DNA of 62,875 nt, the filler included, from Stramenopiles sp. TOSAG23-6 (Eukaryota), in NCBI GenBank assembly GCA_900128565.1. It is 9 parts of 9 records of this genome, joined end to end, with 100 filler letters (N's around TTAATTAATTAA, not from the genome) between each part and the next. Parts side by side here need not be neighbours in the genome. Positions count along the whole stretch, not along the records: positions 34,244 to 45,545 come from LT636271.1; 8 more parts are not named here. One strand, given 5' to 3'. The notes under the pieces are model-generated. The model was given only the letters and a program-made list of their open reading frames with translations. It had not been told where the DNA came from and made no database searches. Position 1 is the stretch's first letter. Every line of letters starts with the position of its first letter. A program made the position numbers and the translations under genes. Positions 30,418 through 59,904 of the stretch are shown one piece after another.

Positions 30418-30503
30418 GTATGTTTTATTTTTTTTGTATGATTTATTTTCATACGAAATTTTGTACCTAACGATTTTTTTTGAAATATTTTTCCAAAATA
30501 CAT
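30418..30503 (+). other. Family intron (GT-AT), possibly a chimeric junction
   Basis: GTATGTTTT...GTACCTAAC...CCAAAATACAT. Confidence 0.75.
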
Positions 30504-33416
30504 CATCTCATGAAGGTTTACTCTAGGTATCGTTCTGGCAAAGTTCACGTAACAATGAAAGATAATTCTGATGATAAAAAATATGTGTATGAGGGGGCTC
30601 TTTCTGAAGATACTTTTCGTTTTATTGAGGCTACAGATCTTCGAACTCCTGAAGCAATGTATCCTTTATTTTTTTTCAAATTCGATTTTTTTTCGTATAA
30701 AATTTTGTACCTAACGATTTTTTTTTTGAAATATTTTTTCATCATACATGTCATATTTCAGGGGAATGCAGCCAAATATTTGTGATCGTGCAATGAGATT
30801 ACGAGCAACACGTTGTCTAGAAAATATAGTGAATGGACTGTGTTTTGTAGATAAAGGCCAAGAACGGATAGTATCTGACAATTCTAGTGGACATATNNNN
30901 NNNNNNNNNNNNNNNNAAATGTGACACCGTATAATCAAACATCCAAGTTCTTACGTACTAATCAGATACAATCACTGAAACAGCAGAGCAATATACACTT
31001 AACTCTGGCAACTGGTTTAAATATCGATAATCTTGCGAGAAAGCGAGATAATCCCAATGTTCCAAAACAACAGCGCATATCAAAGATAAAATCACCTACA
31101 ATGATTTGTCTGAATAAATTTATGTTGAATCCAAGTAATACCCTGTGTACTATTCTTGGCCAATGCAACGGGAAAAGATTAATCTTCAATGTAACAAATA
31201 ATCAATCTGATGAAAAATATAAAATTGCATTAGATATCCAGCAAAAGAGCAATCATCCAAATTTGAAGCTAACTAAACGACAGCAAAGAAATCTACTCAA
31301 AAGTGTTGCTTTGCGTCTTAGACTTGCACATTCATCAACATCAGATTTAGGAGAAACAGCCGAGCAAATAGATCATAGTGAAAATATACTCAAGAAACAT
31401 TATAAACTTTATATAGTTAATGACAGTGGTGATTCAATAATAAAGAAGGAAGCGAAAAAAAAGAAAAACGAAAAACGGATTTGTAAACCAAAACAGAATA
31501 TAGTAGAAAAAAAAGAGAAACAAATGAAAATAAATAGAAATGTTGAACAAAATCTACTAACAGGAAGTGAATTGAATCACACAAAAAAAACAAATCATTA
31601 TAAGTCACCAGATGACAAATCTCTAAACATTTCAAAAACAAAACATAGTAAGTCAACAAGAAAAACAAAATCACAGAAAAACAGTAAATTTAGAATTGAA
31701 GGGGTGTCTACATCTACAATAAATAGAGTACCGAATATTGCCAAGTATCCGAAAGCAGCGAAGCAAGTGAAAAAGAAAGAAAAGACTACCGAGAAAGAAA
31801 TAGTGATCAAAACGACCCGAAAAAAAGTAGCACGTTCTCCAAAATCCTGTCGCTCAATAAAATCTTCAATAAAACCTTCTGCAAATACTCATAAAAATAG
31901 CCCAACAAAGAAGAACGAAGCTAAAGAAAATAACTCTTCAGTGTTATTTAAAACCATGAAAAAACGCCGAGTACATAAACAAATCACATTCAAAGAAAAG
32001 TATGCATCTAGACAAAAGAAATATTTTAAGTCTGCAACAACTATTCAATGTTTATTTCGTATTGTGAGAGCTACTAAATGTATTCAATCTCGTCGACGGC
32101 AAGTGGCTGCTTGTACTATTCAAAACAAATATCGCCAATATATTGCCATTGTCAAGACTCAACAAAAACGAAAACAAAAGCAAAAGTCAGCACAAATAAT
32201 ACAAAGAATCTTCCGTGGTCATCAAATGCGTACTCTATTGCAAAAACAACGAGTAAGTAGTATTTTAATTCAATCAATATTCCGAAGAATCATTTGTTGT
32301 AGAAAACTCCTTAATATTAGAAAACGACAACGACGACTTGCTGCAGCTATTAAGTTGCAGCAAAGATATCGCAGTCATATGATTATAGCGATACCAGCAG
32401 CGATTTATTTACAAAAGGTAATTAGAGGATGGCATACTCGTAATATAAAAATTCCACAACAAAATAGAGAATTAAAGGCATCTTTGAATATACAAAGAGT
32501 ATGGCAAGGATTTCAAGGAAGAGTACGGTGGTGCATGAGACGCAGAAAAGTGAGAGCATCAATCGTCATTCAGGCATTTGCACGTCGACATCTAGCTAAT
32601 AAAAAGCTCCGTTCGATGCGTCGATGTAAAAATGCAGCCTACACATTACAAAGAAGTATTTCGCTATATATATTCATTATTAATCGATGTAAAGCGGCCA
32701 AGGAAATACAAGAATTTACTCGAAGGATTTCGCATATGGTTGAAGCAAAGAAAACAGTGAAACTATTGCGCGAGAACAAATATGCTTGTGTCATTCAACG
32801 TATTGAACGAGGCCGACAAAGCCGCCAAACAGTAATATTGATGAAAACCCAACTTGCGGCGCGTTTAATTCAAAATTGCTGGAGACAGAAGATATCATTT
32901 GATGTTGTCAACTATCGGCGTAAATCTCGAGCATCTACACGAATCTCCAAAATAGTTCGCAGTCGATTGTCAAGAAAGCGTGCACTTCATTTATTGAAAG
33001 TTAAATATGCATCTCTAGTTCAAAGATTATACCGAGGATATCATACACGGAAGATAGTCCGATATTTGCATAAGTCACTGTGGTCTCAACGTGGACATGC
33101 TAGAGGAAAATTAGCATTTGAATTCGAAGAACCTCTCTCTATTGGTGATATGATCATTCTGGCAGATACGGAGGACATTATGCGATTGCCATTGACGCGC
33201 TGGATGAAAATATTTGGACAAAATGAAGAGTTTGCAAAACATACCAGATGCATGTATTCCTCTTGGGGTGGAGCAGCCGCATTAGTAGATTCAACAATTG
33301 ATTCTCACGATGGATCCATTAAACTTTCTGGATTTTTTGATCTCAATACAGGACTTCCAACAATAATGGCCGGTGGTGCTTGGTGGCCACATGAATTATT
33401 ATATTTTGCAAGATAA
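30504..33416 (+). CDS. Multi-IQ-motif (calmodulin-binding) protein, 5' end uncertain, spans gap 30897-30916
   Basis: 831-aa ORF with many IQxxxRGxxxR-type motifs; upstream exons 30504-30658 and 30750-30896 open. Confidence 0.75.
30659..30749 (+). other. Non-canonical intron (GT-AT) with GTATCCTTT donor
   Basis: AT|GTATCCTTT...GTACCTAAC...CATCATACAT|G; restores open frame to gap. Confidence 0.8.
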
Positions 33417-34243: not shown

Positions 34244-34298
34244 AGGTACAAAATTTCGTATGAAAAAAAAATCGAATTTGAAAAAAAATAAAACATAC
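34244..34298 (-). other. Family intron, truncated by contig end
   Basis: AT|GTATGTTTT...GTACCT. Confidence 0.8.
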
Positions 34299-36926: not shown

Positions 36927-36977
<51 letters not shown>

Positions 36978-39900
36978 TCCAGGTAAATGTATTGTGACAG
37001 AATATGTAAACATAAAATTTGTTAAGTACAGAATTTTCATAGTAAAAAAAGAATAAATAAATTTGAAATGAATGTTAGGCTTAGGGTTAACAAACATCTA
37101 TATTAAACATTTCAGGAATAATTGTTAATACGTCTAAATTATAAATAAGCAATTGCATTTCATAATTTGGTTCAATTGTATCATTATCAATAATAGTACA
37201 ATAATTCTTCATTTCATTCATCCAATTTTGCAATTCTTTTAATTTATTCACAACAATTGTTAAATCATGTATCGTGAAAAAAAAATTGAAAAAAAAAATC
37301 AGTTAGGTACAAAATGTTCTACCAAAAAAAAAAATTAAACTTCAGGATAGGGTTAGGGTTAACCTACATCACCGATGCCCCACACTTCATAACATTCAAT
37401 TGAACATAGAAAATATCCTAAAATTGACTGTATATGAAAATATGCTTCATGATGTTTTGAATCCAATAGTAAATGAATTGAAGAGCATATATTCAATAAA
37501 TTATAACGTTTTTGATTTTGATGTAATAATAAAAGTAATGATTCTGTAGTCAAATTATCATTTTCATACATTAATAAAGTAGTTAATATTGTAGAAAAAT
37601 TACTATTTCCAGATGATGACGTCATTTTTGATAAGCTTAAAATTTGTGTATTTTTTGAATGTTTTTCTGAAAATAGATGTTTACACATATTCACAGTTTT
37701 ATCTATTATTGTAGAATTCCCTGAAAATAATTGATGGAGATATAGATTATGAAAAAATATTTCAAAAAAATCCAAAAACATTTGTTAGGTACAAAATTTC
37801 GTATGAAAAAAAATGTAGACAAAAAAATTGAAATGAAAACGTACATTCCACTGGACTTTTCATTGTACCAAGAATACTTTGAAAATCAACTAATACGTGA
37901 GATATTTGATACTCAATTTCAATATCAGCCAAAATACGTAAAAGTTGTATTTGTACACATTTACATTCCATATGTATTGTGAAAAAAAAAAGAAAAAAAA
38001 AAAGTACAAAAATTTGTTAGGTATAAAATTTCGTATACACAAATAATAAATTTTGAAATTTGAAATTTGAAATGATGAAAACAAACATCATCAATTGTTT
38101 CTTCACTCTGATGATATCTCTTGTCACGAACCTGTTTCGGTATAATGACTTTTATTTTACTTTTTTCTTGGCGTAATAATTGCTTTGCTAATCGAGCAGC
38201 ACGAAATAAACGTAATAATCGTACTGTATTGTGAAAAATATTTAAAAAAAAAAGTTAAATTTGTTAGGTACAAAATTTCGTACGAAAAAACACGATTTGT
38301 TTTGAAAAAAATGAAATTGAAAACGTACATAATCGTAACATCCTAAATGTTTTAAATAATGAGCCTAATGATTTGATTGAAGAGACAGCAACACCAAGCC
38401 AATCTACAAATGTAACAATAAAGTCAGTTACACATAGCCAATCAAGGAAATATCGATTGCATCCAATAGCCCAAAGACGTCCAATGACATGTTTTTTTTG
38501 AAAATATTTTTTTTTTTTTGAGTAAAATTTCTGTGTTAGGTATAAAATTTTGTATAAAAAATGAAAAATTAATAAATTCATGATGTGAAAATGTACATCC
38601 AACGTAAACAGAGCAAGAAAGAAATAATCTAATAAGTCTAATGTTGAATTATTTGATTCTTGTAAACCAATTAAACCTGTAATAACAGAAATAAAAGTAG
38701 CTCCAATAATAAATATCATGTACTTTGGAAATATATTTCAGAAAAAAAAACCTTAAATTTGTTAGGTACAAAATTTACTATAAAAAAAACAATTCGAATT
38801 TGAAAAAAAGTAAAACATACATATATATTTTACCATCCATAATATTTTCAACATATTCAGCAAGAGATCGTTCAACAGGTTTGTCTGTATCAACTAAAAG
38901 CTTTCTATATTCACGAACATCATCTTGAGTAAAGTCTGTATCATGAATGATTTGCTTTGAAAAACACGAAAAACATGAAAAAATATTTTTGTTGTTTTGT
39001 TTTTGGGTCGTTTCTTCTTTTTCTATTTTTGAATTGAAATGTCCAATACTTTGAATTAATGGAATTGCAACATTTTGTACTTGTTCAACAGATGAATAAT
39101 AACCATACTGTAATAAATGATGTAAACATTTCGCATATGCAGCTGTTAATAAATGATTATCGTTTCCCGGTTCACTATATTCACGTGTACTCTCTAACCA
39201 CATTTCTATTGATCCTTGTAATATTGCAAATTTATTTGAATGTGTAGTATTTGGTACACCAATCGTATTGGCTTGAATAGGTACATACGTTTCTACATTG
39301 TCTGTATTTTTTTTATTTTCTGTATTTTTTTTATTTTCTGTATTTTTTTTATTTTCTATATTTTCTATATTTGTAACAAATGGCCTACTAATATTTGGTA
39401 TAGGAATTGTCTTTTGTGGATCAACATCAAGCCATAATGAATCAATTAATGAAGCAAATGCGGCTCGTAATTCAATCGTTATTCCAGTGTCAGATGCAGC
39501 TAGTATACATAATTCATATGAATATTCATCTCGTAAATTGTAAATTCCTAAATAATTCCTATTTAAACATAATGTTGAAAATAATGTAATTTGTGCAAGA
39601 TAAAAATCATAAATTTTCTTTTTTTTCTCATATATACTCTTTGCTTCTTGTGCCAATTTTATTTCTTTTGCTTTAAAACCTAATTTTGAATGTTTTGAAT
39701 CTTTTAAAGTATTTTTGGCCTCATCACCATCATCATTATCATCATTAAAATCTTCATGTACACATTCACATATTTCGTGTATTTTTACCCATGTTTTTTT
39801 AAATAAAGCATTTGGTGTGGAAGTCATGTATTATGAAAAATATTTTTTTTTTTAATTTAAAAAAAAATGTTAGGTACAAAATTTCGTATGAAAAAAACAA

Positions 39901-42800
39901 TTTGAAAATTAATGATAAAAACGTACATATCTTTAGTGTACCAAGAAACACACAAACCTGGTACACTCATTCCACCTGAACCAATTGCTGATTCACCCAT
40001 TACATCACCACCATTATCTTCTACATATCTTTGTGTACTTTTAGAATTAAATTGAACACTTTGATTTCTATCACCCATCATTCTTGTCTTTATTAATAAT
40101 TCTTGATTTCGTGTTTTAAAAAGTTCTAAATTGACTTTATCTTGATTATCATCTACAGCTTCATTTTGGCACATACATAATACACACAAAAACTTTATAT
40201 AATCTGGATGTTGTCCAAATTTATGTAATAATTTAACAAATAATTTAATATGTTTTGTTGTAATACAAGTATTTAATAAAACTTCATTACCTTCTACTAA
40301 TTCAGTTAAACAAAATGTTGAACCGATTTGTAATGGAATTTGAACAATCAAAGAATCAATATATTTTGTTGCATACATGAAATGTAGAAAAATATGTTTG
40401 AAAGTTTGAAATTTGTTAGGTACAAAATTTCGTATGAAATCATTGAAATCATAAGGAATATCTACAGGAAAAAAAATTGTTCAATAGATAATTTTGAAAA
40501 AAATAAATTTAAAATTAAAATTAAAATAATGAAAACGTACATTTGATTAGGACGATGATCATCAATTACCATTACTATCATATAATATAAACATTCGCAA
40601 GTATCACATAACATATGCCAAAGTGTAGTATCATTATTCAAGACTTTAATACCTCGTACTAAAGTTTGTACCAAATTCATTGAATATTCTAAAACTTGAC
40701 ATTCTTTTAATAATGTATTTTGGAAAAATATTTCAAAAAAAAATCGTTAGGTACAAAATTTACTATAAAAAATAAATTCGAAATTGAAAAAAAATAAAAC
40801 ATACATTGTTGACGGTCTGTTACAATAAAATCATTCGATATTTTTTTCAATTCTTTGACTTTTTTTTTAAATGGCCAATCTGTTAACATATGGTAATATT
40901 TTTGATTAATTTGTTTAGGATCTATGCAAAATATTCTCAAATATAAACAAATTTCAATAATTTTTACTAATTTGTTTTGATCCATTTTTTCATATAAAAT
41001 TCTAATATTTTTTCTCTTTTTTTCTGATTTCGTTTTTAAAATATTTTCTTCTTCATTTTGTGTTTGAATTATTGTATTATTAGTATTTTCTTCATCTCTT
41101 TTTGTTTCAAATATTGTATTTGAATTATTATAGTGTTGATCATTGTTGAAGTAATCACTAAGGATACAACCAATTTTCTTCAACATTGTAACTAATGATA
41201 TACCTTCATACATTGTAAAAAAATATTTAAAGAATAAAATCGTTAGGTACAAAACTTTCAAAAAAAAAAAAAAAAGAATTTTAAATGCATGATAAAAGCG
41301 TACATATATTGTGATTAATACATCATTTGTATAAGGAATAGAAATGATCATTGCATTATCTTCTTCCCATGATGAAAAGTTTACAACTGAAGCATTTTCA
41401 CCACCATATTCTTCTGCATCTGCACCATCATTCAGCCATATAATACGTTCTGATGATGCATTTTTTACATTATTTTTTGTATCATTTTTTGTTTCATTTT
41501 TTGTTTCATTTTTTACATCATTTTTTATATCATCTGCAATATGAATAAAAATACCAGAATTATTCTTGATACAAACACTTGCAGCACTCTTTACCGATGG
41601 AATTAAATTGAATAATGTCTTTGGATTATTTCGTGTATTTGTTACAATCATACAATCATCAGGATTTTCATTATCATCTTCCAATAAATTAGCTACAATG
41701 GCGCCAGGTGAACCTCGACATAAATATAAATTTGAAATCAAATGACGAAATCGGAATGTATGCTTATATTTTGCTAGACCACCACAAGAAACGTCACTTG
41801 CTTCAATAATCCATAAAAAGTTTGAATTTTCTTTCATATCTATTTCACCCGATTCATCGATTTCACGCGCAGAAAATAATACTGCTAATTCTGTTTCATT
41901 TTCAGATTTTGTTTCATTTTCAGATTTTGTTTCATTTTCAGATTTTGTTTCAACATTTTGACTAATTGTATCAATATCAGATACAGATCCTACATTCTTC
42001 ACAGATAGAAAACAATTACTCTGTGGGTGCTTTAAACGAACAACTGAACCTATAGGTATAAAAGATCGTTTAGGAACACTTTTTCGTAACCCTAACCCTA
42101 AATCTCGACTTGAAGCAAATTTTGAAAATGTCCAACATGTACGAGAATAATTCGTAACTACAGCTGCATTAATTTCACGTAAAGGACCACTCAAATGAAT
42201 ATGTTCCGATTTTCTTTCTAGACCATACAAAATGACAAGATCGTTATATTCAACAACGTCACCCAAAGTTCGTGTTTTTGATTTGGGGTTGACTGTAAAG
42301 CAAGCCATGCCTGTTGGTAGCGATGTAACTTCAATGCAAAAACATTCTGATTGAACTTCAGCGACTTTATTGGGACAAATTGTGACATATTTTTGTGAAA
42401 GAATATTCTGAAGTTGTATAGCATCTCCGTATTTTACTGAACGACCCAACCGTGATTGAATTAAACGTTCATTGGATATTTTTTCTTTTCGCGCAGCGTC
42501 TTTATAGTGTTTTATTGTACGTTCTGAAGAAGTCTTGGAAAGAAGAGCACGATCATACTCGATAGTAGATGTATATTGAAGTTGAGGTACAACACGAAAT
42601 AAGCATTCACGAAATTTTATGGGAAGACTACCATCCGGCTGAAGAACAGCCAAGTGACAAGTTGTATTAGCAAAACCTTCAACACATAAAACTCCCTCCA
42701 CATTGTGGGTTTGGTTAAACGTCTCTTTAGTATAAAGATACACAGTATCGCCAAAAGAAAGCACATCTGGTGGTTTCGATGCATCTGTGGTAGACACCAT
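34244..42800 (-). CDS. Inositol 1,4,5-trisphosphate receptor-like Ca2+ channel with inserted voltage-sensor domain, 3'-partial, 12 family introns
   Basis: LSFGDTVYL, FRECLFRVVP, VKYGDAIQLQN (Ins145_P3_rec); FRFRHLISNLYL (MIR); RQQLLKECQVL, NQMYAT, LCMCQNEAVDDNQ (RIH); IRLLCEGHYRPNQ, LMVECVQGSCSMNQ (RIH-associated). Confidence 0.88.
36927..36977. repeat. (GAT)n microsatellite encoding poly-Asp
   Basis: Long tcatcatca run on + strand. Confidence 0.9.
36987..37095 (-). other. Non-canonical intron (GT-AT) containing telomere-like repeat
   Basis: GTTTGTTAACCCTAAGCCTAAC...GTACTTAAC...CACAATACAT. Confidence 0.8.
37267..37367 (-). other. Non-canonical intron (GT-AT) containing telomeric repeat
   Basis: GTAGGTTAACCCTAACCCTA...GTACCTAAC...CACGATACAT. 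Confidence 0.8.
37742..37844 (-). other. Non-canonical intron (GT-AT)
   Basis: GTACGT...CATAATCTAT; frame restored. Confidence 0.78.
37972..38086 (-). other. Non-canonical intron (GT-AT)
   Basis: GTTTGTTTTC...ATACCTAAC...CACAATACAT. Confidence 0.82.
38224..38328 (-). other. Family intron with canonical end (GT-AG)
   Basis: ...CACAATACAG; restores S4 periodicity RMLRLLRLLRLFR. Confidence 0.88.
38489..38596 (-). other. Non-canonical intron (GT-AT), in-frame
   Basis: Restores S2 helix FTLD|VIGRLWAIG. Confidence 0.85.
38718..38820 (-). other. Non-canonical intron (GT-AT)
   Basis: GTATGT...CCAAAGTACAT; joins KIYM-IFIIGATF. Confidence 0.85.
39826..39926 (-). other. Non-canonical intron (GT-AT)
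   Basis: GTACGT...GTACCTAAC...CATAATACAT; joins two ORFs in frame. Confidence 0.85.
40377..40540 (-). other. Non-canonical intron (GT-AT), long variant
   Basis: Restores NQ-M-YATKYI. Confidence 0.82.
40713..40804 (-). other. Non-canonical intron (GT-AT)
   Basis: Restores RQQ-LLKECQVLE (IP3R RQKLxRE-like motif). Confidence 0.88.
41208..41303 (-). other. Family intron (GT-AT), in-frame, no stop
   Basis: GTACGCTTT...GTACCTAAC...ACAATGTAT. Confidence 0.75.
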
Positions 42801-43740: not shown

Positions 43741-45545
43741 ATGGTCTCGACGTCACCAACTTTGTATAGTAATAGTACTTCAGCAAATAGTTCTACAGGT
43801 ACTTTTGCAACTTTAGATCATATCCGTCGTTTTTCTAAACTCAAGGGTCGATTAAACACGCATGCGTTTGTTTCATTGACAAAATCTAAACGACATATTC
43901 CTACACATCCCAATAAACAACATACATCAAGTGTATTGAACATTCGGCCTCGTAAGTATCAGCCTCTAGGTGCTCGTAGAAAACGAACTGATTCCTCTCC
44001 CCGTTTTCAGCAACAAAACAAATATTCTAATAAAGAATATCATATTCCCCCAAGTTATTTACCTTTTGAGAAGTCGAATCAGTTTCGTAATATACATGAA
44101 TTAAATCTTACTTCTGGTTTTGTGTACTCAAATAAAAGACAAAAGACAACTGGCAAAATTTTCTTACCTACAAAGGATTTTCGAAATTCTACAAGTCAAC
44201 GAAATAAGCGACAATATAATTCAAATGTATTACCTCTATCAAATAGTATGAATGTTACTTCTAAAAGAAATAGTGGTGGACTGAAATCTGCGTTAAGTAC
44301 AAAAATGTATATGAAAAGAAAAGAAGTCACAAAAAATGTTCGATTTGCACGAATGTTTGTTTTCTTTTTTTTAATTTCGAATTTTTTTTTCGTACGAAAT
44401 TTTGTACCTAACGAATTTTTTTTGAAATATTTTTTCAAAGTAAATCAACTGTTATGATTCAAGTTCAAGGTGTGTCTACGACAACGTTACAAAACGCATC
44501 AAGAATTACAAAGTCAATCAATGGTGCTCCTCGTTTAGTTACACGACCAAAACTCAATATGTCAATATCATCACCAAAGAAACACACGAAATATATCAGA
44601 CCAAAAGCTTGGGAAAAACATAATACAGGTATTGAAATAGTAACACGTGGCAATAATGATGATGATGATTTTAAAACATCTGCTGAAGCAAGGTATACAT
44701 TTTCTGCGTCCAAGCAAGCGCAACAATATAGTCATCGAAGCCAATACAATTCTTTTATAAATGACATGCGGAATTCGAGAATCGCAGCAGAAAGTGAAAA
44801 AGAACGAAAACGTAAAGGCTTGAAAAAATGTGAAGTCACGGTAGAAAATATGGGAACTGATTTAGGAATGACTCGACTTTCAGGTTTACCTTCCCCTCGA
44901 CTAAATCTCCCTACGACAGTCGATGAATTATGGCTTGAACGTCCATTGGATAATTCTGGACATCCAAAACGTGGCGGCCGCGGATCAATGAAGAGAGAAC
45001 ATGTACGTTTTTTTTTAAATTTTTTTTTAAATTTTTTTTTAAAATTTTTTTTTATAGAGAATTTTGTACCTAACGAATTTTTTTTTATTTTTTTTACAAA
45101 AAAAAAAAAAAAATATTTTTCACAATAAATGACCCAGATCGTTTGATTAAACGCAAATTAAAAGTACGACCAACAACTCAAGCTGAAATGCGTGATTGTT
45201 CAGCAGCTCTTGAACCAGAAGATATAAAAGCGATTTCGTGCGGACCTAAACTAATTAATTTTGAACGTGTTTGCATTCGAAGTGAAAATGTTAAATGTTT
45301 TTCAGTATATAATGACTCTTCGGCAAATATACTCGTTGCCTTAAAATTAGATGATTGTCCAGAATTACGTTTAACTACGCCAATGAGTCAAGTTATTCCT
45401 TCTGGAGGTACTGCCGGTTTTGACATTACCTTAATGTATGTTTTATTTTTTTTTTTAACAAAAACATCGATTTTTTTTTCATACGAAATTTTGTACCTAA
45501 CAAATTTAAGTTTTTTTTTTTCAAATATTTTTCCAAAATACATGT
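43741..45545 (+). CDS. CFAP47-like (ASH/Ig-fold ciliary protein) gene fragment, 3'-partial; introns ~44355-44440, 45003-45130, 45436-45543
   Basis: PTTQAEMRDCSAAL...ISCGPKLINFERVCIRS...ELRLTTPMSQVIP resembles CFAP47 from memory; first exon shows no such similarity. Confidence 0.55.
44355..44440 (+). other. Family intron, probably GT-AG (acceptor uncertain)
   Basis: AG at 44440 gives the in-frame join; AT end at 44445 does not. Confidence 0.6.
45003..45130 (+). other. Non-canonical intron (GT-AT)
   Basis: ...CACAATAAAT|GAC CCA GAT in frame. Confidence 0.8.
45436..45543 (+). other. Family intron (GT-AT) at contig end
   Basis: GTATGTTTT...CCAAAATACAT. Confidence 0.75.
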
Positions 45546-45701
45546 NNNNNNNNNNNNNNNNNNNNNNNNNNNNNNNNNNNNNNNNNNNNTTAATTAATTA
45601 ANNNNNNNNNNNNNNNNNNNNNNNNNNNNNNNNNNNNNNNNNNNNATTTTGTACCTAACAAATTTTAGTTTTTTTTTTTGAAATATTTTTCCAAAATACA
45701 C

Positions 45702-49298: not shown

Positions 49299-52200
49299 AT
49301 GTCTGATCCAGAGGGATATCAAATACCTCCAGCTGTCTCTGTCAGCAATGACGTTAGTCAATCAACTCCTCGTACATCTCTATCTGTCGTCACAAAAACA
49401 CATACAAAAAAAGAATCAGGTATACCAAATGATTTATATGAAGGTGGGACGCAAATCGAGTCTGTAATATCTCCTATATCAAATGCTTCATCGGAATGCG
49501 CTTCTTTACGTCAACAAGTAGTTCAATTATCTAAATGTGCGGAAGAAAACTCTATAGAGAATTTCTTACCTGATGAAACTCCGTTTGCTGAGTCTCTCCC
49601 ACCTCGGCCAATAGCGCGCGAAAATCAGCATCGTATAGAATTATTGAAGCGAGCTCGCCGAATGGAACACGATAATGAACGACGCGAGCGTGAAAAGATA
49701 AAAGCAAATAACAAGCTACGTCAAAAAACTTTGGAGAAAATAAACGAAAGTCAAGAAAAAAAATTAGGGTTAGAGTTTCCACAAAGTCTTCGAGATAAAG
49801 AGCAATTTGATGAATTAATGAATTTAAAAACGGATGAAATTTTATCTCGATCAAATAAGCAAACAAAATTTAGATTAGATGAAAATGAAATTTTAGTTGG
49901 AAAAAATAGTTATATATCTACTACTACGGGTAAAACATCCGAAAAATGTATAAACCCTAACCCTAGTAACCCGAGTGAAGGTCAAATCACAAACAATGAC
50001 ACTCAGAACATTCAAAATTCGTTACGTTCGAAAACCATAGGAGGATTAGCAACAGATGTTCATTCAAATGTTCATTCAAATGTTCATTCAAATGTTCATT
50101 CAAAATCAAATAATAGACCTAACCTTGGGAAGGATTACTCCTTAGATAACAATACACAGTATTCAATGCGTGAACGAAAAAACACGAAATCTATACAAAA
50201 CAAAATCGAACATAGCACAACAAAAAGTAACGATAATTGTACTGTCCAGAAAACTTCAAAAACTCCAAAAGTGAATAATGTAGAAATCATTCGGGCACAA
50301 AAAGCAGCATTGGAGCTAGCTAAGTATAGTATGGCGCAAAATCAATTAAAAATTAGAAAATTGGCGATGGAAAGAAAACAAAAAAGTCGTATGTTTTTTT
50401 TTCAATTTCGAATTTATTTTTCATACAAAATTTTGTACCTAACCATATTTTTTTTTTTCGAAAATTCTTTACCTAACAATTTTTCTTTTTTGATTTTTTT
50501 CAAAAATATATGTGATCTGGCAATAAGACTTAGGGAACAAACATTACAGCCAAGACTACCAAAAAGAAAACGAAAATCTAAAGAAATTAATAAAAATATA
50601 AAATCAACATTATCAAAAAGTAGTTCAAAAAATAGAAATTTCGCAGCTTCTTTTCCAAAATCTAAAAATACAAAAACATCAAAATCAAAGCCAACAGTGT
50701 TAAAAATAAAAAATAGTACAAAACATCATGAAATAAATCATCCAAAAAATACAAAACATCAAAACAATCAAAATCATAACCCTAATCCAAAAAATACAAA
50801 ACATCAAGACAATCTTATTTTGAAACAATCAAATTCTGCGACTGAAAAAAAAGTGAAAAAGAAATCGACCAAATCGACCAAACCAAAAAAGAAGATTGCG
50901 TATAAAGAATTAAAAAGGAGACGACAAAATGTCAATTCTTTAGGTAAGAAATTTCCTACGAATTTAATTTCGAATGATAAAAATTTGGATGATTCTCATA
51001 CGAGTAAAAAAATAGAGCAAGCCATAAATAGAACATGTACGTTTGCACCATGAATTTCAATTTTTTTTTTTTTTGATACGGAATTTTGTACCTAAATGTT
51101 TTTTTTTTTTGAGTTTTTGAGTTTTTTATTCAATACGTTTTCACTATAAAATGTCAAATTTTTTTTTTAGAAAATTTTGAACCCCAAACACATTTTATTT
51201 TTACTAAAAAAGAAAAAGAAAAAAAATATATTTTTTCACAATACATGGTTGGATGGTTTAGAAACTTCTATAATGAACAAAATATTACCTTTACAAATTC
51301 AAAAAGAGAATAACAAAAATAACAAAAATAATACATCTAAAAAAGAAAAAAATACTAATTTTCACACTCGTAAAAATACAATTGAAAAAAGTTTAGAAAT
51401 ATCATCTGGAAAGCCAAAGAATACAAAATCAGAGTCAGAAAAAATAGAAAAACGTAAAAAATTAGTTGCATATATGGCGCGAAAAAAGAAAGAAATGAAA
51501 TTAAAAATTAAAGCAGAAAAACAAAAGTTTGAAAATGAGAAAAAGTCAAAAGAAGAGAGACTTCTTGGAGTACGGGAAAATGCTTTAAAAGCATATCAAA
51601 CTATGAAAGTGAAAAAGATGTATGTTTTATTTTTTTTTTCAATTTTGAATTATTTTTTTTCAAAAAAAATTTGTACCTAACAAAATTTTTTAGTTTTTTT
51701 TTTGAAATATTTTTCCAAAATACATGCCACTGCTAAAGAAAAGAGAAACGAATCGCAAATCCCGCAAAGCATTGAGTATTACTAAAAATGGATCGAAAAT
51801 GAGATACAATTCGCATTCAAGTAATTTTGGTACAACAAAAAATGTTCAAAAACAAAAAATGTTCAAAAATGAAAAAATAAAAAGTACGATAAATTTTCAA
51901 ATGGACAAGAATTTAAATTCGACCGATGCATCGAATATAGTAAAGCATACTAAAACTTCTAGTACATCAATACATCAAAATCAGTCGTCAAGTAGTATTC
52001 AAATGCTCAAAATCAAAGAAAAAAAGAGTAATAAAAAAAAGAATAATATAGTCAAAAAAAGTTCCACTTGTATTAAAACATCTAAAATACCTAAAAAAAC
52101 TCATAAAAATAAATCTACTTTTGAAAATGGAACCCAACAAATTCGAAATTTATCAGGTGTTGTGAAAAAAACTCAAATATCTCAAGATTCAAGTTCAAAT

Positions 52201-55200
52201 TTGCAAATGAAAACTAAACTAACTTTGTTAAATACTAAGAATACTAGGAATAATAAAAAAGTAAATTCTACAGTAGAGGAAAGTAGCAGTGAAACTCAAG
52301 ACTCTCAAGAATGTATGTTTTTTTTTTTTTTTTAATCGATTTTTTTTTCGTACGAAATTTTGTACCTAACAAATTTAATTTTTTTTTTGAAATATTTTTC
52401 CAAAATACATGCAGTAGTGAAACTCAGGAAAAAGAAAAAGCAAATGAAGTATTACATCAAGTTTTTGAATTAGGTGATTCGATCATCGAATGCGCAGATC
52501 GATTGAGTTCGTTTTTTGATCATAAAAGTAAAAAATCGATCGCTTCACTATCAAAAAAACAATTTAGACGTTCAAAATCAAAATTGAAACAGAAAAAGAA
52601 GAAGAAAACACGAAAAAAACTAAATGCTGTACATAATGATGGGAAGAAACAACGAAATCAACTGAATTCTGATAGTAATGATCAGAATTGTTTACATACG
52701 AAAAAAAATCCTCAAAGTAGAGGAAAAAAGGATGACCCTTACAAAAAACATAAGAAAAATATGCGGGAAAGATGGCAAATAAGAGAGCGCAACTTTTTAG
52801 AATTATCTGTTGGTAGAGGCGAATGTACGTTTGATTTTTTTTTTCAACAAAAAAATCGGATTTATTTTTTTCAAAAGATTTTGTATCTAACAAATTTTTT
52901 TAGATTTTTTTTTGAAATATTTTTCCAAAATACATGGGATAATATTCAAGAAAATAGTGAATCTTTATTTGATAATATTGAGAATCTTGGTTTAGTAGAA
53001 GAAAAGAAAAAAGAAGTTTCATCTTCTCTTGCATATACAAAATTTCTACAAAATATAAAAGGCCAAAAAAATAATTATATTCCTGATTTTGAATCAAATG
53101 CAATTAATAGCCAATTACAAAATGTTGTACAGCGAGGTTCAAATCTTCCAAAATTAATCGCGAATCAACTTGCTGCTGGTGGTTTGAGTGATGAATGTAT
53201 AAATGATTTCGAAGATTCTGCTGAAGAAAAAAACGGATTTGGTATATTTGATGTCCATGCACGAAATCTACTACAATGTGAACTGAGTGGATGGCGTCGA
53301 CAACAAATCGATGAAAACCTACGCAAAACTCATCATTCTGACATTGAAAACGTAAAACAAACAAAAGACAATGTTTTCGATAAAGATGATGATATTGACT
53401 ACGATATTCCTGTGGGTGGAATTGTATCAGCGTATCTACAAAAACAAGGTAGTACAACAAATATTAATGATTCAAAAGTTAATGATGAGCCTAGCCCTAA
53501 CCCTAATCTACAAAAACAAGGTATTACAACAAATATTGATGATTCAAAAGTTAATGATGAGAAAATATTCGAAGATTCACAGCAAAATATTCATGATATA
53601 TCTTCATGTTATGCTAATGAAGCATTTGAAAGAGAAAATGTAAATAAATCAAGAATTTCGTGTGATATGGATAATACAAATGAATTAGGGTTAGAGCTAA
53701 ATAAATCAAGAATTTTATCTATGGAAAATAGTAATCCTAACCCTAATACTGATCCAAACAACTCATTTGATAAGATTTTATCGACTAGTGCCGAAAATAA
53801 TTCGAATACTGATAAAAAAAATGATAAAAATAACCCTAAAAATAATAGTAGTATTTACTGGGATTCTTTATTATCTGTTCCTGATGGAGATCATCGACCT
53901 CTATTAGATGTCTTGCCTGATACACGTAACCCTAACCCTAATCGACCTCTATTAGATGTGTTGCCTGATACACGTGTAGAAGTGACTGATGGATGTATTG
54001 AGGGTGATACAACAACACCTCTATTAGGTAGAGCAAAGGAAATAAAAACGTCAAAATCCTCAGATTTTTTGAAAACATTTGAAAAATCAAAAACAAATAA
54101 TTTATCCGCTGTTGAAATGGGTCGTTTGCTTCAATCAGAAGTTGAATATATGCATTCATTAACTGAAAAAGAAAAACGAATTGATCAAATGAAAGATATT
54201 CAAGCCATTCAAATCGCACAAGCTGAAACTGCTGATATTCGAGCTCGATGGGAAGATGTACGTTTTCGTTTCAATTTTTAATTGATTTATTTTTTCATAC
54301 GAAAATTTGTACCTAACGAATTTTTTTTTTAGACGTTTTCATTTCAATTTTTTGTCTAAATTTTTTGTTTTGAAAAAATTTGTACCTAACGATTTTACAT
54401 TTTGAAATATTTTTCATAATCCAGGCACATGGCGTTGCTAAGTTTGCAGCACAGCAAACATTAATCCAAAAAGAATATGAAAAAAATGTGATGCAAGCTG
54501 CTGAGCAATTGCGTCTCGATTTGGAAAATGTACACAAAAATCGTGTCCATCAACTAGAATCAGAAAATACCGCACTGAGACAAAAAGAAGTGTTTGTTCA
54601 AACCGAAACCCTACCCCTACATAAAATTGAAAAAAATGAAAAAAAAGACACAAATCAGCATGTAATAAAAGACACAACTGATACGAATGAGCGTTCAAAT
54701 TTCGTAAAAAAAGCTTCAAATATTTTACTCAAATCGAAAGCTGAGATAGTTACGAGATTTGTATCTGAAATAAATGTTCTCAAAATACAGGAAGAAAAAT
54801 TGATCGAATTATTCAAGAGACAATTGAAAGAAATCAAAGACAATTCTGGCACAATAGAAAAAATAGAAGAATTAAAACAAAAACACATGAAATCTATAAA
54901 GGTACTTCAACAGGATAAAGATGAAATTACATTTGAACATCATCAGAAAATACAGAAATTAAATCAACGAATTCGAGATCTAAATGAAATTTCTTTTTCA
55001 GAAGAATTATCTCAAGAATCTCTAGATGTTGATACAAGTGTAGATTCGTCTTCTACGACAAGTTTCGTTTCTACAGCTGATTTGAAAGATGATAAAATCA
55101 GTACAGTTGATGAGTCAATGACAAATACTTATGAATTAGATGATTTTGAAAGCACAAGTTTGAAACAATCCATTGAAGACATAAAGGAAATGAATATACC

Positions 55201-56929
55201 TGATTTTTCAGATCTACAAAAAATAGAAGATGATATACCAGATAATAATAATCATTCAAATCTACACAAAATAGAAGAAAATATAGAATCCGTATCTGAA
55301 GTGTCCGATACCTATGAATCAGATTTTGAAAAACTACAAAACGAAACTGAAAGGAAAGAAATTTCAACATCATCTCCCAGTGTCGATGTATGTTTTATTT
55401 TTTTTTTTTTTACAAAAAAATCGATTTTTTTTTTTCAAAAAATTTAGTACCTAACAATTTTTTTTAGATTTTTTTTGAAATATTTTTCCAAAATGCATGT
55501 CACAACTTCCGATGAGTTTGTGATGGAAATGCGTGGGCAAACAGAACATCTGAAGACAAAATTGAATGAAGATAAACTCCGAAAAAAAGAAAAAGTTGTT
55601 CAAAAGAAACGTGAAGCAGCGGTACAGTTATTGAGACAAAAAGAAAAAGTAATTGAAATGAAAACAAGAGAAATTGCGCTTCTGCGCGATGAAGCTGAAG
55701 TAGAAGAATTAGTAAAAAAGGCACTCTTAATTGATGTAAATGTAGAAATTAAAAAAGCTCAAAAATTATTACAAAATCGCACAAAAAATGTTGAAAAAAA
55801 TGACGAAAAAAATGTAGATAAAACGTCGGATATAGCAGAACCTCTCTCAACAATTACATCGAAATTTAAATTAGCAAATTTACCAACAAGAAACGGTCGA
55901 CAAAAGAATGGTGAAATGATCCAATCTGGTGCATCCTATAGTAGTTATGATGGTGCTAGTGAAATTGCTGATGATATTTTAGATCGAGGAATGACTACAT
56001 TGTTAAAACTAGCGACGGATCACTCTACTAGTAATGTATCAATATGTGAAGATATAAATACTAATATACCAGAAAGTAGTTTTGTTGACCCTACTATACA
56101 TCAAGATAGTGTTATTCTTGAAGAAAGTGGTGCCTTCATTGAATCTTCATCAATAGTTGCTTCAGAAGTTGGTGAATCTTTAAGCAAATCGAGTAGTATT
56201 AACTCATATGGAGATGAAAGTTTTATCTTCTCCGGAGATGAAGCAACAAAAATGACAAATGAATTGAATAATACATATGAAAAAGATGAATTTGAAGATG
56301 ATGATGTCAACGAATTGAAGGAAAAAGATGAATTTGAAAATGATGATGTCAACGAATTGAAGGAAAAAGATGAATTTGAAAATGATGTCAACGAATTGAA
56401 TGACAATGTGCAATTGAGTTTCGCTTCTTCTACGATAGAAAATAAAGTAGACAATGAAAATCTGAAAAATAACACTAAATATGATGATGAAATTTTAGAT
56501 TTTGAAAAAGAATCAAATGCTACAAAATTTCGTGTCGAATCTCTAGAAAATGTATGTTTTATTTTTTTCAATTTCGAGTTTTTTTTCTTACGAAATTTTG
56601 TACCTAACGTTTTTTTTTTTTTGAAATATTTTTCCAAAATACATGAACTGGAAATGAAAAGAGCCGACGCTGCAAAACTCGCACGATTAAAGAGTGTTAA
56701 AACAGCGTCACTTAGAGAAAAACTTAGAGAAGAAACACTTTTAGCAGAAATTGCATTATTGGATAAACAATGTGACACGATAAAAAATACAACACCTGAG
56801 ACTGTATCAGATGTACGTCAAAAATATGATGTAGGTTTCATTTTTTTGAAAATTTGAATTTTTTTTTTTATAGTAAATTTTGTACCTAACAAAAAATTTT
56901 AGATTTTTTTTTTGAAATATTTTTCCAAA
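49299..56929 (+). CDS. Very large Lys/Asn-rich coiled-coil protein (possibly CEP350-like), 3'-partial; introns 50389-50511, 51037-51246, 51620-51725, 52313-52410, 52825-52935, 54258-54424, 55388-55498, 56552-56644, 56831-end
   Basis: Six ORFs join into one frame when family introns are removed; LLQSEVEYMHSL...IQIAQAET weakly recalls CEP350. Confidence 0.7.
50389..50511 (+). other. Family intron (GT-AT), in-frame, two branch motifs
   Basis: GTATGTTTT...TACCTAAC x2...AAAATATAT. Confidence 0.75.
51037..51246 (+). other. Non-canonical intron (GT-AT), long
   Basis: GTACGTTT...CACAATACAT; frame restored. Confidence 0.8.
51620..51725 (+). other. Non-canonical intron (GT-AT)
   Basis: GTATGTTTT...CCAAAATACAT; frame restored. 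Confidence 0.85.
52313..52410 (+). other. Non-canonical intron (GT-AT)
   Basis: Consensus ends; frame restored. Confidence 0.85.
52825..52935 (+). other. Family intron (GT-AT), in-frame
   Basis: Consensus ends. Confidence 0.8.
54258..54424 (+). other. Family intron (GT-AG), two units in tandem
   Basis: Two GTACCTAAC; ends CATAATCCAG at the consensus position. Confidence 0.8.
55388..55498 (+). other. Non-canonical intron (GT-AT)
   Basis: ...CCAAAATGCAT; removes in-frame stop. Confidence 0.85.
56552..56644 (+). other. Family intron (GT-AT), in-frame
   Basis: Consensus ends. Confidence 0.8.
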
Positions 56930-58517: not shown

Positions 58518-59904
58518 TAGGTACAAAATTTCGTACGAAAAATAAATTCGATTTTTTTGTTTAAAAAAAAAATAAAACATACATGTAAATTAAATTCTTC
58601 ACGAAGAGATTTTGATAGAAACTTAATATAATGTTCTGGTATATCACTTCTATTTCCAAAAATACAAAATGTAGGTGGTCTAGCAGTAACTTGAGACATA
58701 TATCGGAATTTCACAGGTTTCTTTGATTCTGATAATGTATTTCGGAAAAATATTTGAAAAAAAAATCGTTAGGTACAAAATTTCGTACGAAACAAATAAA
58801 AAAAAAATCGAATTTGAAAAAAAATAAAACATACATGGTGGTGGTGTAAGAAATGTAATTCGTTCTAACCATCTATTTAAATGTGAAGTGGATGCACGAA
58901 GTCTCCATTGATCAAAAAGAGCAATAGCAGTCGGCATAACTTGTCGAACTCCACCTCCAGTACCTGTATTTTGAAAAAATATTTTTTTTTGTAATAATGT
59001 TTTGTTAGGTACAAAATTTCGTATGAAACAAAAATGAAGTAAACAATTCATGATGAAAACGTACGTGCTGAAAGCGCAATGACTGGGACATCACCACCTT
59101 GACGTAATTGTGACCTCAATGTTTCTGTTACACCTTTAAGAGCCGCATATCTACATGGAACATCATCAACTTTATTAACAATACCCATGTATTGTGAAAA
59201 AATATCATTGTAGAAAAAAAATCGTTAGGTACAGAATTTCGTACGAAAAAAAAATAAATTTGAAATTCATATCATGAAATCGTACATGACTGCGCGTCCT
59301 TGAGATATAGCTTCTGATGCTAATCTTAAATCTTGGGCGGGTACAATGCCATCCGTAGCATCAACTACTATAGCAACAATATGTGCATGCTCTATCGATT
59401 TTTGAGAATCAGAAGCCGAAAGATTTTCTAAAGGAGTTGATCTATCTCGTTTCCCATGTATTGTAAATTTTTTTTTTTTGAATTTTTTTGTTAGGTACGA
59501 AATTTCGTATGGAAAAAAAAAATAATTTTGGAAATGAATGATAAAAACGTACATGTCTTCGAACGCCTGCCGTATCAACTAAACGAACATCTCGTCCTTC
59601 ATATTCACATTCTACAGTAACAGAATCACGAGTAATACCAGCCATAGAACCAGTAATTAATCTTTCCTGTCCGACAAGTTTATTGACTAATGTTGATTTA
59701 CCAACATTAGGCCGACCTATAATTGCTAATTGAAGTGGTTCAACATCAGTTTGACCTCCATCTATAGGTAAATTAGTAGGTAACACTTTCCCTCCACGAC
59801 CTGCACTTTTATGATGATACTTATAGGTATTGTGTTTATTTTGAGATTCAAATTCCTCAAAATTGGCATTGTTTTTATTTTGAGATTCAAATTCCTCAAA
59901 ATTG
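58518..59904 (-). CDS. der: GTPase Der/EngA (organellar), partial: second GTPase domain and KH-like domain; introns 59456-59552, 59187-59285, 58964-59064, 58735-58834, 58518-58582
   Basis: [28 protein letters not shown], spliced [30 protein letters not shown]. Confidence 0.9.
58735..58834 (-). other. Non-canonical intron (GT-AT)
   Basis: Restores [15 protein letters not shown]. Confidence 0.88.
58964..59064 (-). other. Family intron (GT-AG)
   Basis: ...CAAAATACAG; restores LSARTG (G5 motif). Confidence 0.88.
59187..59285 (-). other. Non-canonical intron (GT-AT)
   Basis: Restores [12 protein letters not shown] (G4 motif). Confidence 0.9.
59456..59552 (-). other. Non-canonical intron (GT-AT)
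   Basis: Restores [12 protein letters not shown]. Confidence 0.9.

Follow-up and report, generated by a model that had tools for sequence, protein, structure and literature searches.

A repeated family of mostly GT-AT intron-like elements with a putative branch-site box in Stramenopiles sp. TOSAG23-6

The stretch of DNA analyzed here (the window; 62,875 nucleotides, filler included) consists of nine parts of the genome assembly of Stramenopiles sp. TOSAG23-6 joined end to end. It contains 41 elements of about 100 nt, of which 35 are complete and 6 are truncated at contig ends. They are spread over at least 8 genes and 8 contigs, so that many introns of similar sequence occupy unrelated genes. 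One copy had been flagged in a first-pass annotation, in which an extended branch-point-like motif was taken to predict a variant snRNA; positions 44391-44412 of the window, which hold this motif, read cGTACGAAATTTTGTACCTAAC. The features of the flagged copy are given below.

44355..44445, plus strand: flagged copy, 91 nt by the usual family ends (nhmmer E=6.3e-12), with a degenerate donor, GTTTGTTT, and a 3' end reading ...CAAAGTAAAT
44392..44407, plus strand: near-palindrome GTACGAAATTTTGTAC, exact in this copy
44404..44412, plus strand: box GTACCTAAC; the presumed branch adenosine is the second A of TAAC, at 44411
44424..44445, plus strand: 3' box, GAAATATTTTTTCAAAGTAAAT, mutated relative to the family end ...AATACAT
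44439..44440, plus strand: AG that has arisen in the mutated 3' box, 5 nt upstream of the family end

The other copies on the plus strand are the following.

2866..2959, plus strand: SNF2-like gene intron, GT..AT
3068..3161, plus strand: SNF2-like gene intron, GT..AT, box decayed to GTAATTAAT
3280..3378, plus strand: SNF2-like gene intron, GTACAT..AT, box GTATCTAAC
5303..5393, plus strand: SNF2-like gene intron; the 5' exon ends in TG, not AT, and GT..AT removal gives W-Y-C at the end of a PHD finger
19905..20003, plus strand: intron after a Myb-like ORF, box GTCCCTAAC, ends in TT
20218..20306, plus strand: family intron, GT..AT
30043..30134, plus strand: DGAT2-like gene intron 1, GT..AT
30414..30503, plus strand: DGAT2-like gene intron 2, donor GTATGTATG, GT..AT
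30659..30749, plus strand: DGAT2-like gene intron 3, U12-like donor GTATCCTT, ends in AT
45003..45130, plus strand: family intron in the gene of the flagged copy, GT..AAAT
45436..45543, plus strand: copy at a contig end, 3' exon cut
45646..45701, plus strand: 3' half-copy at a contig start, ends in ACAC
50389..50511, plus strand: double element with two boxes, GTACCTAAC and TTACCTAAC, GT..AT
51037..51246, plus strand: tandem double element of 210 nt, upstream box GTACCTAAA, TACTAAA 38 nt from the 3' end
51620..51725, plus strand: family intron, GT..AT
52313..52410, plus strand: family intron, GT..AT, exact palindrome
52825..52935, plus strand: family intron, box GTATCTAAC
54258..54424, plus strand: double element with two intact boxes, GT..AG
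55388..55498, plus strand: family intron, GT..GCAT
56552..56644, plus strand: family intron, GT..AT
56831..56929, plus strand: copy cut by a contig end, donor GTAGGT

The copies on the minus strand are as follows.

59456..59552, minus strand: GTPase-like gene intron, GT..AT
59187..59285, minus strand: GTPase-like gene intron
58964..59064, minus strand: GTPase-like gene intron, GT..AG
58735..58834, minus strand: GTPase-like gene intron
58518..58582, minus strand: copy truncated within the box by a contig end
61491..61590, minus strand: copy cut by a contig end, box GTACCTAAA
47792..47963, minus strand: tandem double element, boxes GTACCTAAG and ATATCTAAC
41208..41303, minus strand: IP3-receptor-like gene intron
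40713..40804, minus strand: IP3-receptor-like gene intron
40377..40540, minus strand: IP3-receptor-like gene intron, long
39826..39926, minus strand: IP3-receptor-like gene intron
38718..38820, minus strand: IP3-receptor-like gene intron; the AT end keeps the frame, an AG located 5 nt ahead of it does not
38489..38596, minus strand: IP3-receptor-like gene intron, box ATACCTAAC
38224..38328, minus strand: IP3-receptor-like gene intron, GT..AG
37972..38086, minus strand: IP3-receptor-like gene intron, box ATACCTAAC
37742..37844, minus strand: IP3-receptor-like gene intron
37267..37367, minus strand: IP3-receptor-like gene intron, telomere-like AACCCTAACCCTA after the donor
36987..37095, minus strand: IP3-receptor-like gene intron, box GTACTTAAC
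34244..34298, minus strand: copy truncated within the box by a contig end

At E<1e-3, nhmmer returned 42 hits, which comprised 34 of the 35 complete copies, the second halves of two double elements and the six contig-end copies; the remaining complete copy scored E=0.014. All family hits ran in the same direction as the flanking ORFs. Not one of the 41 elements was antisense, and no antisense or intergenic copy was detected in this window at the same threshold. Of the 16 inner contig ends, 6 fall within family copies, suggesting that near-identical copies are numerous. No transposase was seen beside the elements, nor was an autonomous partner seen in this window; a scan of 22 ORFs revealed a single mobile-element domain, a copia-type reverse transcriptase (13294-18156). 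No look-alike stretches were found in the other genomes compared, and a 22-nt stretch of the 3' box had no match in metagenome contigs or in genome contigs. Seawater and marine DNA and RNA sequencing runs contain small shares of the window, which carries no weight as evidence here. Among the matches listed, the literature searched yielded no paper on a GT-AT introner family, and full-text matches to the box as a word were confined to primers and unrelated sequences.

All 35 complete copies begin with GT (GTACGT in 16, GTATGT in 10, GTTTGT in 3 and other donors in 6), and these donors are compatible with U1 and U6. The inverted ends are only 5-6 bp long (ATGTA...TACAT). The upstream exon ends in AT in 28/35 copies and the intron in 31/35; the terminal AT is thus a second copy of the dinucleotide that closes the upstream exon, and may reflect a 2-bp target-site duplication. 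The other introns end in AG (3/35) or TT (1/35), such that the terminal AG typical of U2-type introns was found in three copies only.

Removal of the sequence from GT to the 3' end preserved the reading frame in 34 of the 35 copies with curated ends, the end pairs of seven (30414, 38596, 47963, 51037, 37367, 37095 and the added row 3068) having been set or added by hand after sequence inspection. When the ends were taken from a weight matrix alone, uncurated, 26 of 29 were in frame; the chance expectation is one in three. Over 28 junctions in five genes, read-through encountered no stops. Relatives of the DGAT2-like protein aligned gap-free over two junctions (H|IGTARLTL to HPG(S/T)xxLTL and PI|HLMK to PIHLPK). 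The flagged copy was the sole one whose GT..AT removal broke the frame. In it, the 86-nt removal from GT (44355) to AG (44440) was the only one starting with GT and ending in AG or AT near the family 3' end that joined both ORFs without a stop.

Two other placements of the borders were considered. An in-frame GT/GC-AG pair, sought from -12 to +12 of the donor and from -20 to +30 of the end, was absent in 11/35 copies; some such pair occurred in 24/35 within this wide search box. Among the 32 copies without a terminal AG, only 6 have the first downstream AG in frame. For intron 1 of the DGAT2-like gene, a shifted GT-AG pair would replace a Gly that is conserved in the relatives. GT-AG introns with shifted borders were ruled out as a general reading on these grounds. 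An AT-AC reading, with borders 2 nt leftward, was likewise ruled out, given terminal AT in 31/35 copies versus ACAT in 22/35. The copy at 5303 also speaks against it: only GT..AT removal yields the Trp that precedes the final two Cys of the PHD finger.

Protein searches for transcript-derived, junction-spanning proteins covered targets of 0.55 to 1.75 times the query length. The DGAT2 exon search returned only the public coding sequence P0001 and relatives whose identity did not exceed 55% along most of the query, with a few partial matches of up to 69%; within the same length limits, the IP3-receptor exon and the exon after the flagged copy had no protein hits. In P0001, the only identical public coding sequence, intron 1 had been moved to a GT-AG pair, with replacement of the conserved Gly, and intron 2 was read into until a stop.

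The reading frames, the AT ends, the copies lacking an in-frame GT/GC-AG pair and the rarity with which the first AG fits all support the first-pass annotation in so far as it allowed for an acceptor signal other than AG; the 3' ends of the family introns appear not to be set by that dinucleotide. The conserved 3' box described at the same time is real as a region (the last 10 nt of the intron are 86% identical to the consensus), but its consensus was one base off for the main subfamily: GAAATATTTTTCMMAATAC had only 6 sites at two or fewer mismatches, and the commonest subfamily 3' end, ...TTTTTCCAAAATACAT, is one base longer.

Across the whole window, GTACCTAAC gave 30 exact matches and 44 with no more than one mismatch, versus a shuffle expectation of 5.95 (sd 2.41) for the latter; none of 100 shuffles reached 44. 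Every exact match belongs to the intron family, as do 10 of the 14 with one mismatch; the four one-mismatch matches outside it (8602, 24537, 44300 and 45997) are at chance level. All 30 exact copies are on the host-gene sense strand. Measured from its last base, the box is 32-46 nt away from the 3' end in 31/35 complete copies, bearing out the earlier figure of about 30-50 nt; the remaining four distances are 56, 68, 113 and 150 nt, three of which belong to tandem double elements. T-rich sequence follows the box.

The box was the best conserved block of the element, with 95% identity to the consensus versus 60-77% for five other blocks; these “neutral” blocks were aligned without gaps, and changes in T-run length therefore inflate their divergence. 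In the most diverged third of copies, the mismatch rate was about 0.10 or less in the box versus 0.40 elsewhere. Individual box positions were conserved in 32-35 of the 35 copies, the CTAAC core was kept in 31/35, and yTnAy in 33/35. Because all nine positions are conserved and not CTAAC alone, more than a yUnAy core is apparently being read. The 7 nt directly upstream, AAATTTT, are 92% conserved, so that the whole conserved block is 16 nt long; no U2 pairing is expected in this upstream part, and strong conservation by itself is thus no pointer to U2. The upstream AAATTTT has no explanation in a branch-box model and weighs against it.

The branch-point-like character ascribed to the box gains indirect support from its top-ranking conservation, the persistence of the yTnAy core, its fitting distance from the 3' end and its sense-only orientation. 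Judged from sequence, the elements probably form a repeated, introner-like family of spliceosomal-type introns, about 100 nt in length, with GTACCTAAC as their branch-site box.

The pairing of this box with snRNA was then considered. U2 GUAGUA pairs with the branch sequence, for which the yeast box is UACUAAC and the human consensus merely yUnAy, as given in the cited passages (PMC2367711, PMC13019295). The box core CTAAC already satisfies the ordinary yUnAy rule. By nearest-neighbor calculation, UACCUAAC pairs with GUAGGUA at -5.9 kcal/mol and with GUAGUA at -0.6 kcal/mol (yeast box, -2.6 kcal/mol); the arithmetic behind the earlier claim of full pairing with GUAGGUA was therefore right. The poor pairing with the six canonical U2 bases counts against the branch-site reading as we state it. 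Under a variant-snRNA reading, this lineage would have a U2 snRNA, or an extra, dedicated U2 variant, that gained a G (GUAGGUA) and pairs fully with UACCUAAC; the box and the snRNA would have co-evolved, and an invading, AT-ending introner family would now supply nearly all introns. Both Cs of the box are retained (in 32/35 and 33/35 copies), and all five changes at these positions are C to T, which would still permit a G-U pair; C to T is also the expected mutational drift of AT-rich DNA. The conserved block reaches 7 nt past any such pairing. In addition, the element at 51037-51246 has lost the box proximal to its 3' end and carries, 38 nt from that end, TACTAAA, which fits canonical U2 (a single case, noted post hoc). 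We know of no change in the U2 branch-recognition sequence. Rfam models matched no snRNA in the window, whether at the gathering score or with E values as high as 1; public metagenome contigs contained no U2-like word bearing one inserted base, a collection without this element and hence without power on this point. In Fritillaria, Amoebophrya and Physarum, the spliceosome changed along with a massive influx of transposon-derived introns, according to the passages cited (PMC11282704), and U2 is described as highly conserved in sequence across eukaryotes (PMC13019295). On balance, a base gained by U2 is considered unlikely.

The CC of the box and the tolerance of non-AG ends are also reminiscent of a minor (U12-like) or hybrid spliceosome. 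The box matches six of the eight letters of the U12 branch consensus, TCCTTAAC, and one copy (30659) has the U12-type donor GTATCCTT. Donors in the other 34 of 35 copies are not U12-like and depart from (A/G)TATCCTT. The box is farther from the 3' end than U12 branch sites are, their distance being about 10-20 nt. U12-type splicing is reported to tolerate GT-AT and AT-AN ends (Sheth et al. 2006, PMC1557818); U12 introns are described as having no T-rich tract (PMC11282704), whereas that of the present family is long. Splicing of the family by such a machinery appears very improbable.

In the first-pass annotation, most copies were said to carry the box within a near-palindrome. This proved to be a minority feature: GTACGAAATTTTGTAC is exact in 4/35 complete copies and has one mismatch or fewer in 12/35, and the whole window contains 6 exact sites. 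Two copies (2866 and 59552) carry a palindrome that is perfect over 14 bp. Across the family the left arm varies, in contrast to the fixed right arm, which belongs to the box. Paired cells amounted to 70.6%, versus 70.5% in shuffles (285 of 500 shuffles were equal or better), and the closing G-C pair was present in 8 of 34 distinct rows. Whole-intron RNA folds of 10 copies were in no case better than those of shuffled sequences (z from -1.66 to +0.37). Given the absence of covariation and the shuffle-level folding, a functional RNA hairpin is not supported and was rejected; the palindrome was probably inherited with the element and not kept by selection for a hairpin.

The same sequences bear on the idea that the box is conserved without use as a branch site, either as a DNA-level site of the element (e.g. 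for binding in the dyad GTAC...GTAC) or because the copies are young. The 16-nt conserved block exceeds a branch site and overlaps the dyad, the two perfect palindromes are in line with such a site, and the contig breaks inside copies point to many near-identical copies. Against this, only the left arm of the dyad is free to decay, the right arm being fixed, and conservation along the element is very uneven, which youth alone does not explain. The strictly sense orientation and the persistence of the yTnAy core even in decayed copies also disagree with it, and we regard it as a quite unlikely account.

Removal by a non-spliceosomal route, i.e. DNA excision or an RNA pathway like that of euglenid nonconventional introns, would accommodate the non-AG ends, the 2-bp direct repeat and the short inverted ends, all of which resemble those of excised DNA elements; euglenid nonconventional introns are described as sharing such ends (PMC11282704). 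The GTAYGT donor, the yUnAy box with its T tract and the minority of AG ends are, by contrast, spliceosomal hallmarks. Since the RNA folded no better than shuffles in any of the ten copies, no end-pairing structure is indicated, and this route seems scarcely credible.

Each element consists of a yeast-like donor (GTAYGTTT), the conserved block AAATTTTGTACCTAAC about 50 nt downstream, a T-rich stretch and the conserved end ...CA(M)AATACAT. Under the preferred reading, that of an introner-like family with its own branch-site box, the U2 snRNP would read the box, most simply via CUAAC, a core in agreement with the general yUnAy rule, and the branch nucleophile would be the second A of TAAC. The 3' cut would be placed by the element's own end and not by a search for AG; removal would extend from GT to the last base of the copy, leaving AT as the final pair in most cases and AG in a few.

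If the frames hold, most introns of this marine protist are removed without the near-universal terminal AG, and splicing would depend on three features: the canonical donor, the strict branch box of 9 nt and the end that the element itself supplies. The family would then constitute a natural test of second-step site choice and of mobile-element control of splicing signals. Standard gene models fail on these introns, as exemplified by P0001; the branch box offers a search handle for them and a precise target for U2 compensation. Were the variant U2 true, a mobile element would have re-tuned a core RNA of the major spliceosome.

Several known systems resemble the family in part. As in the yeast pairing of UACUAAC with U2 GUAGUA (PMC2367711, PMC13019295, in the passages cited), there is a strict, near-invariant box, an intron-poor genome and a GUAYGU donor. 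Relative to the yeast sequence, the present box has one C inserted and keeps CUAAC; unlike in yeast, pairing with GUAGUA is interrupted by the extra C, conservation spans 16 nt and not 7, and the 3' end is AT and not YAG. Introners, MITE-like, intron-generating transposons of Micromonas, Aureococcus and others, are described as many near-identical short introns in unrelated genes, with a short direct border repeat, short inverted-repeat ends, and one splice site borne by the element while the other overlaps the repeat (PMC11282704, PMC12130899); similar short introns in unrelated genes recur here, and the AT at both borders and the 5-6-bp inverted ends would be counterparts of the other traits. 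In the introners so described the repeat supplies AG, whereas the putative repeat here supplies AT, resulting in an intron without AG. According to the relevant passage, families with unfamiliar splice sites were dropped from a 2025 introner survey unless RNA data backed them (PMC12130899).

Fritillaria borealis and Amoebophrya share with the present case mass transposon-like intron gain, non-GT-AG borders and a presumed adaptation of the spliceosome (PMC11282704, PMC7789003). Their borders vary, being AG-AC or AG-AT in Fritillaria and of many kinds in Amoebophrya, and a strict branch box is not among the features described in the cited passages of these sources. The family analyzed here, unlike either, combines a canonical donor with a strict branch box and departs only in the last base. 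An expansion of U12-type introns in Physarum polycephalum was reportedly described by Larue et al. in 2021. In the passage cited, the Physarum polycephalum case is a precedent for signals and machinery shifting together with mass intron gain, and it concerns the minor spliceosome, unlike the U2 proposal considered here (PMC11282704). Finally, animal GT-AT introns demonstrate that such introns can be spliced: U2-type examples are reported, among them one in DGCR2 that is conserved between human and mouse, and seven U12-type examples are given in Table 2 of the source (PMC1557818). Those introns are single rarities as presented there, whereas in this window GT-AT is the rule.

The sequence at 44391-44412, within the family copy at 44355..44445 (+), agreed with its description in the first-pass annotation. 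The branch-point-like box found there, GTACCTAAC, occurred 30 times exactly in the window and 44 times with at most one mismatch (5.95 expected; none of 100 shuffles gave 44 matches). Every exact copy had the same surroundings: the box was preceded, at 46-66 nt, by a donor GTAYGTTT and followed by a T-rich stretch and an end in ...AATACAT. A family profile was built on 15 copies, and matches were counted at E<1e-3. There were 42, namely 34 of the 35 complete elements, the second halves of two double elements, and six copies cut at contig ends; the remaining complete copy scored E=0.014. The flanking ORFs lay on the strand of the element in 41 of 41 cases, and the four one-mismatch matches outside elements were at chance level. 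All counts on the family were taken from the window alone, which has the GC content of an AT-rich eukaryote (0.25-0.40) and whose contigs are chained through N44-TTAATTAATTAA-N44 linkers. Seawater and marine sequencing runs contained small shares of one part of it, a match given no weight. Six of the 16 inner contig ends (34244, 45545, 45646, 56929, 58518 and 61491) fell in or at a family copy, two of them mid-box, as expected if the assembler faces many near-identical copies; the assembly breaks at the family repeat.

Copies of unusual form
47792-47963: tandem or nested double element, two box positions
50389-50511: tandem or nested double element, two box positions
51037-51246: tandem or nested double element, two box positions
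54258-54424: tandem or nested double element, two box positions, both boxes intact
37267-37367 and 36987-37095 (- strand): neighbouring introns of the IP3-receptor-like ORF with telomere-like repeats (AACCCTAACCCTA, AACCCTAAGCCTAAC) that abut the odd donors GTAGGT and GTTTGT; they look like a local subfamily
30659-30749: donor GTATCCTT, the U12-type consensus; box and AT end as usual
45646-45701: copy at a contig start without its 5' half, ending in ...AATACAC, i.e. AC instead of AT

Element ends were set by weight matrices that had been trained on clear copies and were blind to reading frame. With these uncurated ends, removal from the GT to the element end brought together the longest frames on either side in 26 of 29 introns, the rows kept being those with both ends well scored at a threshold picked afterwards. 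Seven rows were adjusted by hand before the final count: the donor at 30414 was moved 4 nt upstream, the acceptor at 38596 was moved 2 nt further on, two tandem double elements were each treated as a single intron, the unusual donors of two rows were accepted (GTAGGT, GTTTGT), and one box-less copy was included from the profile. The frame was kept in 34 of 35 after these changes. With these borders, five genes were free of stops over 28 junctions; one of them, the IP3-receptor-like ORF, read through 2498 codons with 11 junctions. A retained element would block read-through with a stop in 28 of the 35 copies.

The DGAT2-like gene aligned without gaps to its relatives over two junctions, DSH|IGTARLTL with DAHPG(S/T)xxLTL and GTPI|HLMK with G(K/E)PIHLPK. 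The only identical public protein (P0001, 310 aa; 29446-30467) uses for intron 1 a GT-AG pair displaced by 4 nt, which changes the conserved P-G position to V-R; its model then runs into intron 2 and stops there, so that the C-terminal part of the protein is lost. Other ORF products in the window were SNF2-, Myb-, RCC1/ankyrin-, IP3-receptor- and copia-RT-like.

Two regions of these ORFs
11428-18156: two long ORFs in the same frame with one stop between them and an RVT_2 (copia-type reverse transcriptase) domain; the single N letters scattered through them suggest that differing copies of a retrotransposon were merged in assembly
36900-36986 (- strand) and elsewhere in the IP3-receptor-like ORF: long low-complexity coding runs, including a poly-Asp stretch that directly follows an intron, and the units ETKSEN and NKKNTE in repeats

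The 35 introns ended in AT (31), AG (3) or TT (1). AT also formed the last two bases of the upstream exon in 28 copies, and the next exon began with G in 23. As judged from frames and homology, the 3' cut is apparently not set by AG, as the first-pass annotation had suspected, because a wide search found no in-frame GT/GC...AG alternative in 11 of 35 copies and, of the 32 copies without an AG end, only 6 kept the frame at the first AG after the box. At 38718-38820, the AT end was in frame and an AG 5 nt before it was not. The copy at 44355..44445 was the exception, with mutations in both the donor (GTTTGT) and the 3' box (CAAAGTAAAT). Removal of GT(44355)...AT(44445) left 18 stops; removal of the 86 nt from GT(44355) to AG(44440) left none. 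Either this copy has shifted to a new AG or there is an error in the draft sequence close by; a protein search found no relatives of similar length for its gene.

Each position of the box was conserved in 32-35 of the 35 copies, with the CTAAC core in 31 and yTnAy in 33. In 31 copies, its last base and the 3' end were 32-46 nt apart, in keeping with the ca. 30-50 nt first noted.

Identity to consensus by block of the element
Box: 0.95
AAATTTT immediately upstream of the box: 0.92
Donor 8-mer: 0.90
Last 10 nt of the element: 0.86
Five other blocks: 0.60-0.77

The box had a mismatch rate of 0.10, a value inflated by one row anchored one base off, in the third of the copies that was most divergent outside it (0.40); the 0.40 is itself raised by T-run indels (the block comparison was ungapped) and includes subfamily differences. 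Neutral decay of the motif in older copies, one of the outcomes that the first-pass annotation had set against its own prediction, was therefore not observed.

That prediction was a variant U2 snRNA whose branch-recognition sequence, GUAGGUA, would pair fully with the box. Its pairing arithmetic held.

Nearest-neighbour energies of pairing
Box with GUAGUA: -0.6 kcal/mol
Yeast box with GUAGUA: -2.6 kcal/mol
Box with GUAGGUA: -5.9 kcal/mol

In favour of the prediction, the two Cs of the box are retained, and all five changes at these positions were C to T, which preserves wobble pairing. Against it, such changes are also the expected drift of AT-rich DNA, and the conserved stretch reaches 7 nt upstream, beyond any U2 pairing. 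The double element at 51037-51246 has lost the family box near its end (the downstream box) and carries, 38 nt from that end, TACTAAA, which fits canonical U2; this is one case, noticed post hoc. U2 is described as highly conserved across eukaryotes, and many species as splicing with yUnAy alone (PMC13019295, PMC2367711). Such a variant is considered improbable. No Rfam family was detected in the window, even with E relaxed to 1. Public metagenome contigs contained no U2-like word carrying one inserted base, a result given no weight because the element is absent there too; the element likewise had no match in the genome contigs searched.

The near-palindrome reported before the box was only partly borne out: 4 of the 35 copies hold it exactly, and 12 do so when one mismatch is allowed. 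Its right arm is fixed because it belongs to the box, and the left arm drifts (ATAC, ATAG, TATG, TCAA). Among 37 aligned copies, 70.6% of cells paired versus 70.5% in shuffles; the pairing was equalled in 285 of 500 shuffles, and there was one double change overall. Ten whole introns folded no better than shuffles. A selected RNA hairpin was accordingly rejected. Since two copies still hold a perfect 14-bp palindrome, the ancestral element probably had one, and the palindrome looks inherited rather than selected as RNA.

A U12-type intron was also rejected: a U12-like donor occurred in 1 of 35 copies, and the box is too distant from the 3' end. GT-AT borders are known just as rarities (PMC1557818), and no GT-AT introner family was described among the literature matches listed. 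A 2025 introner survey states that it dropped families with unfamiliar splice sites lacking RNA support (PMC12130899). Non-canonical, transposon-derived introns were gained en masse in Fritillaria and Amoebophrya; their borders vary, and the excerpts of these reports do not mention a strict branch box (PMC11282704; PMC7789003). The present family resembles introners as outlined in PMC11282704: it is multi-copy, occurs in the window only within genes, and has short, putative inverted ends and a probable 2-bp direct repeat that would overlap one splice site; in the introners described there, however, the repeat gives AG, whereas in this family it would give AT.
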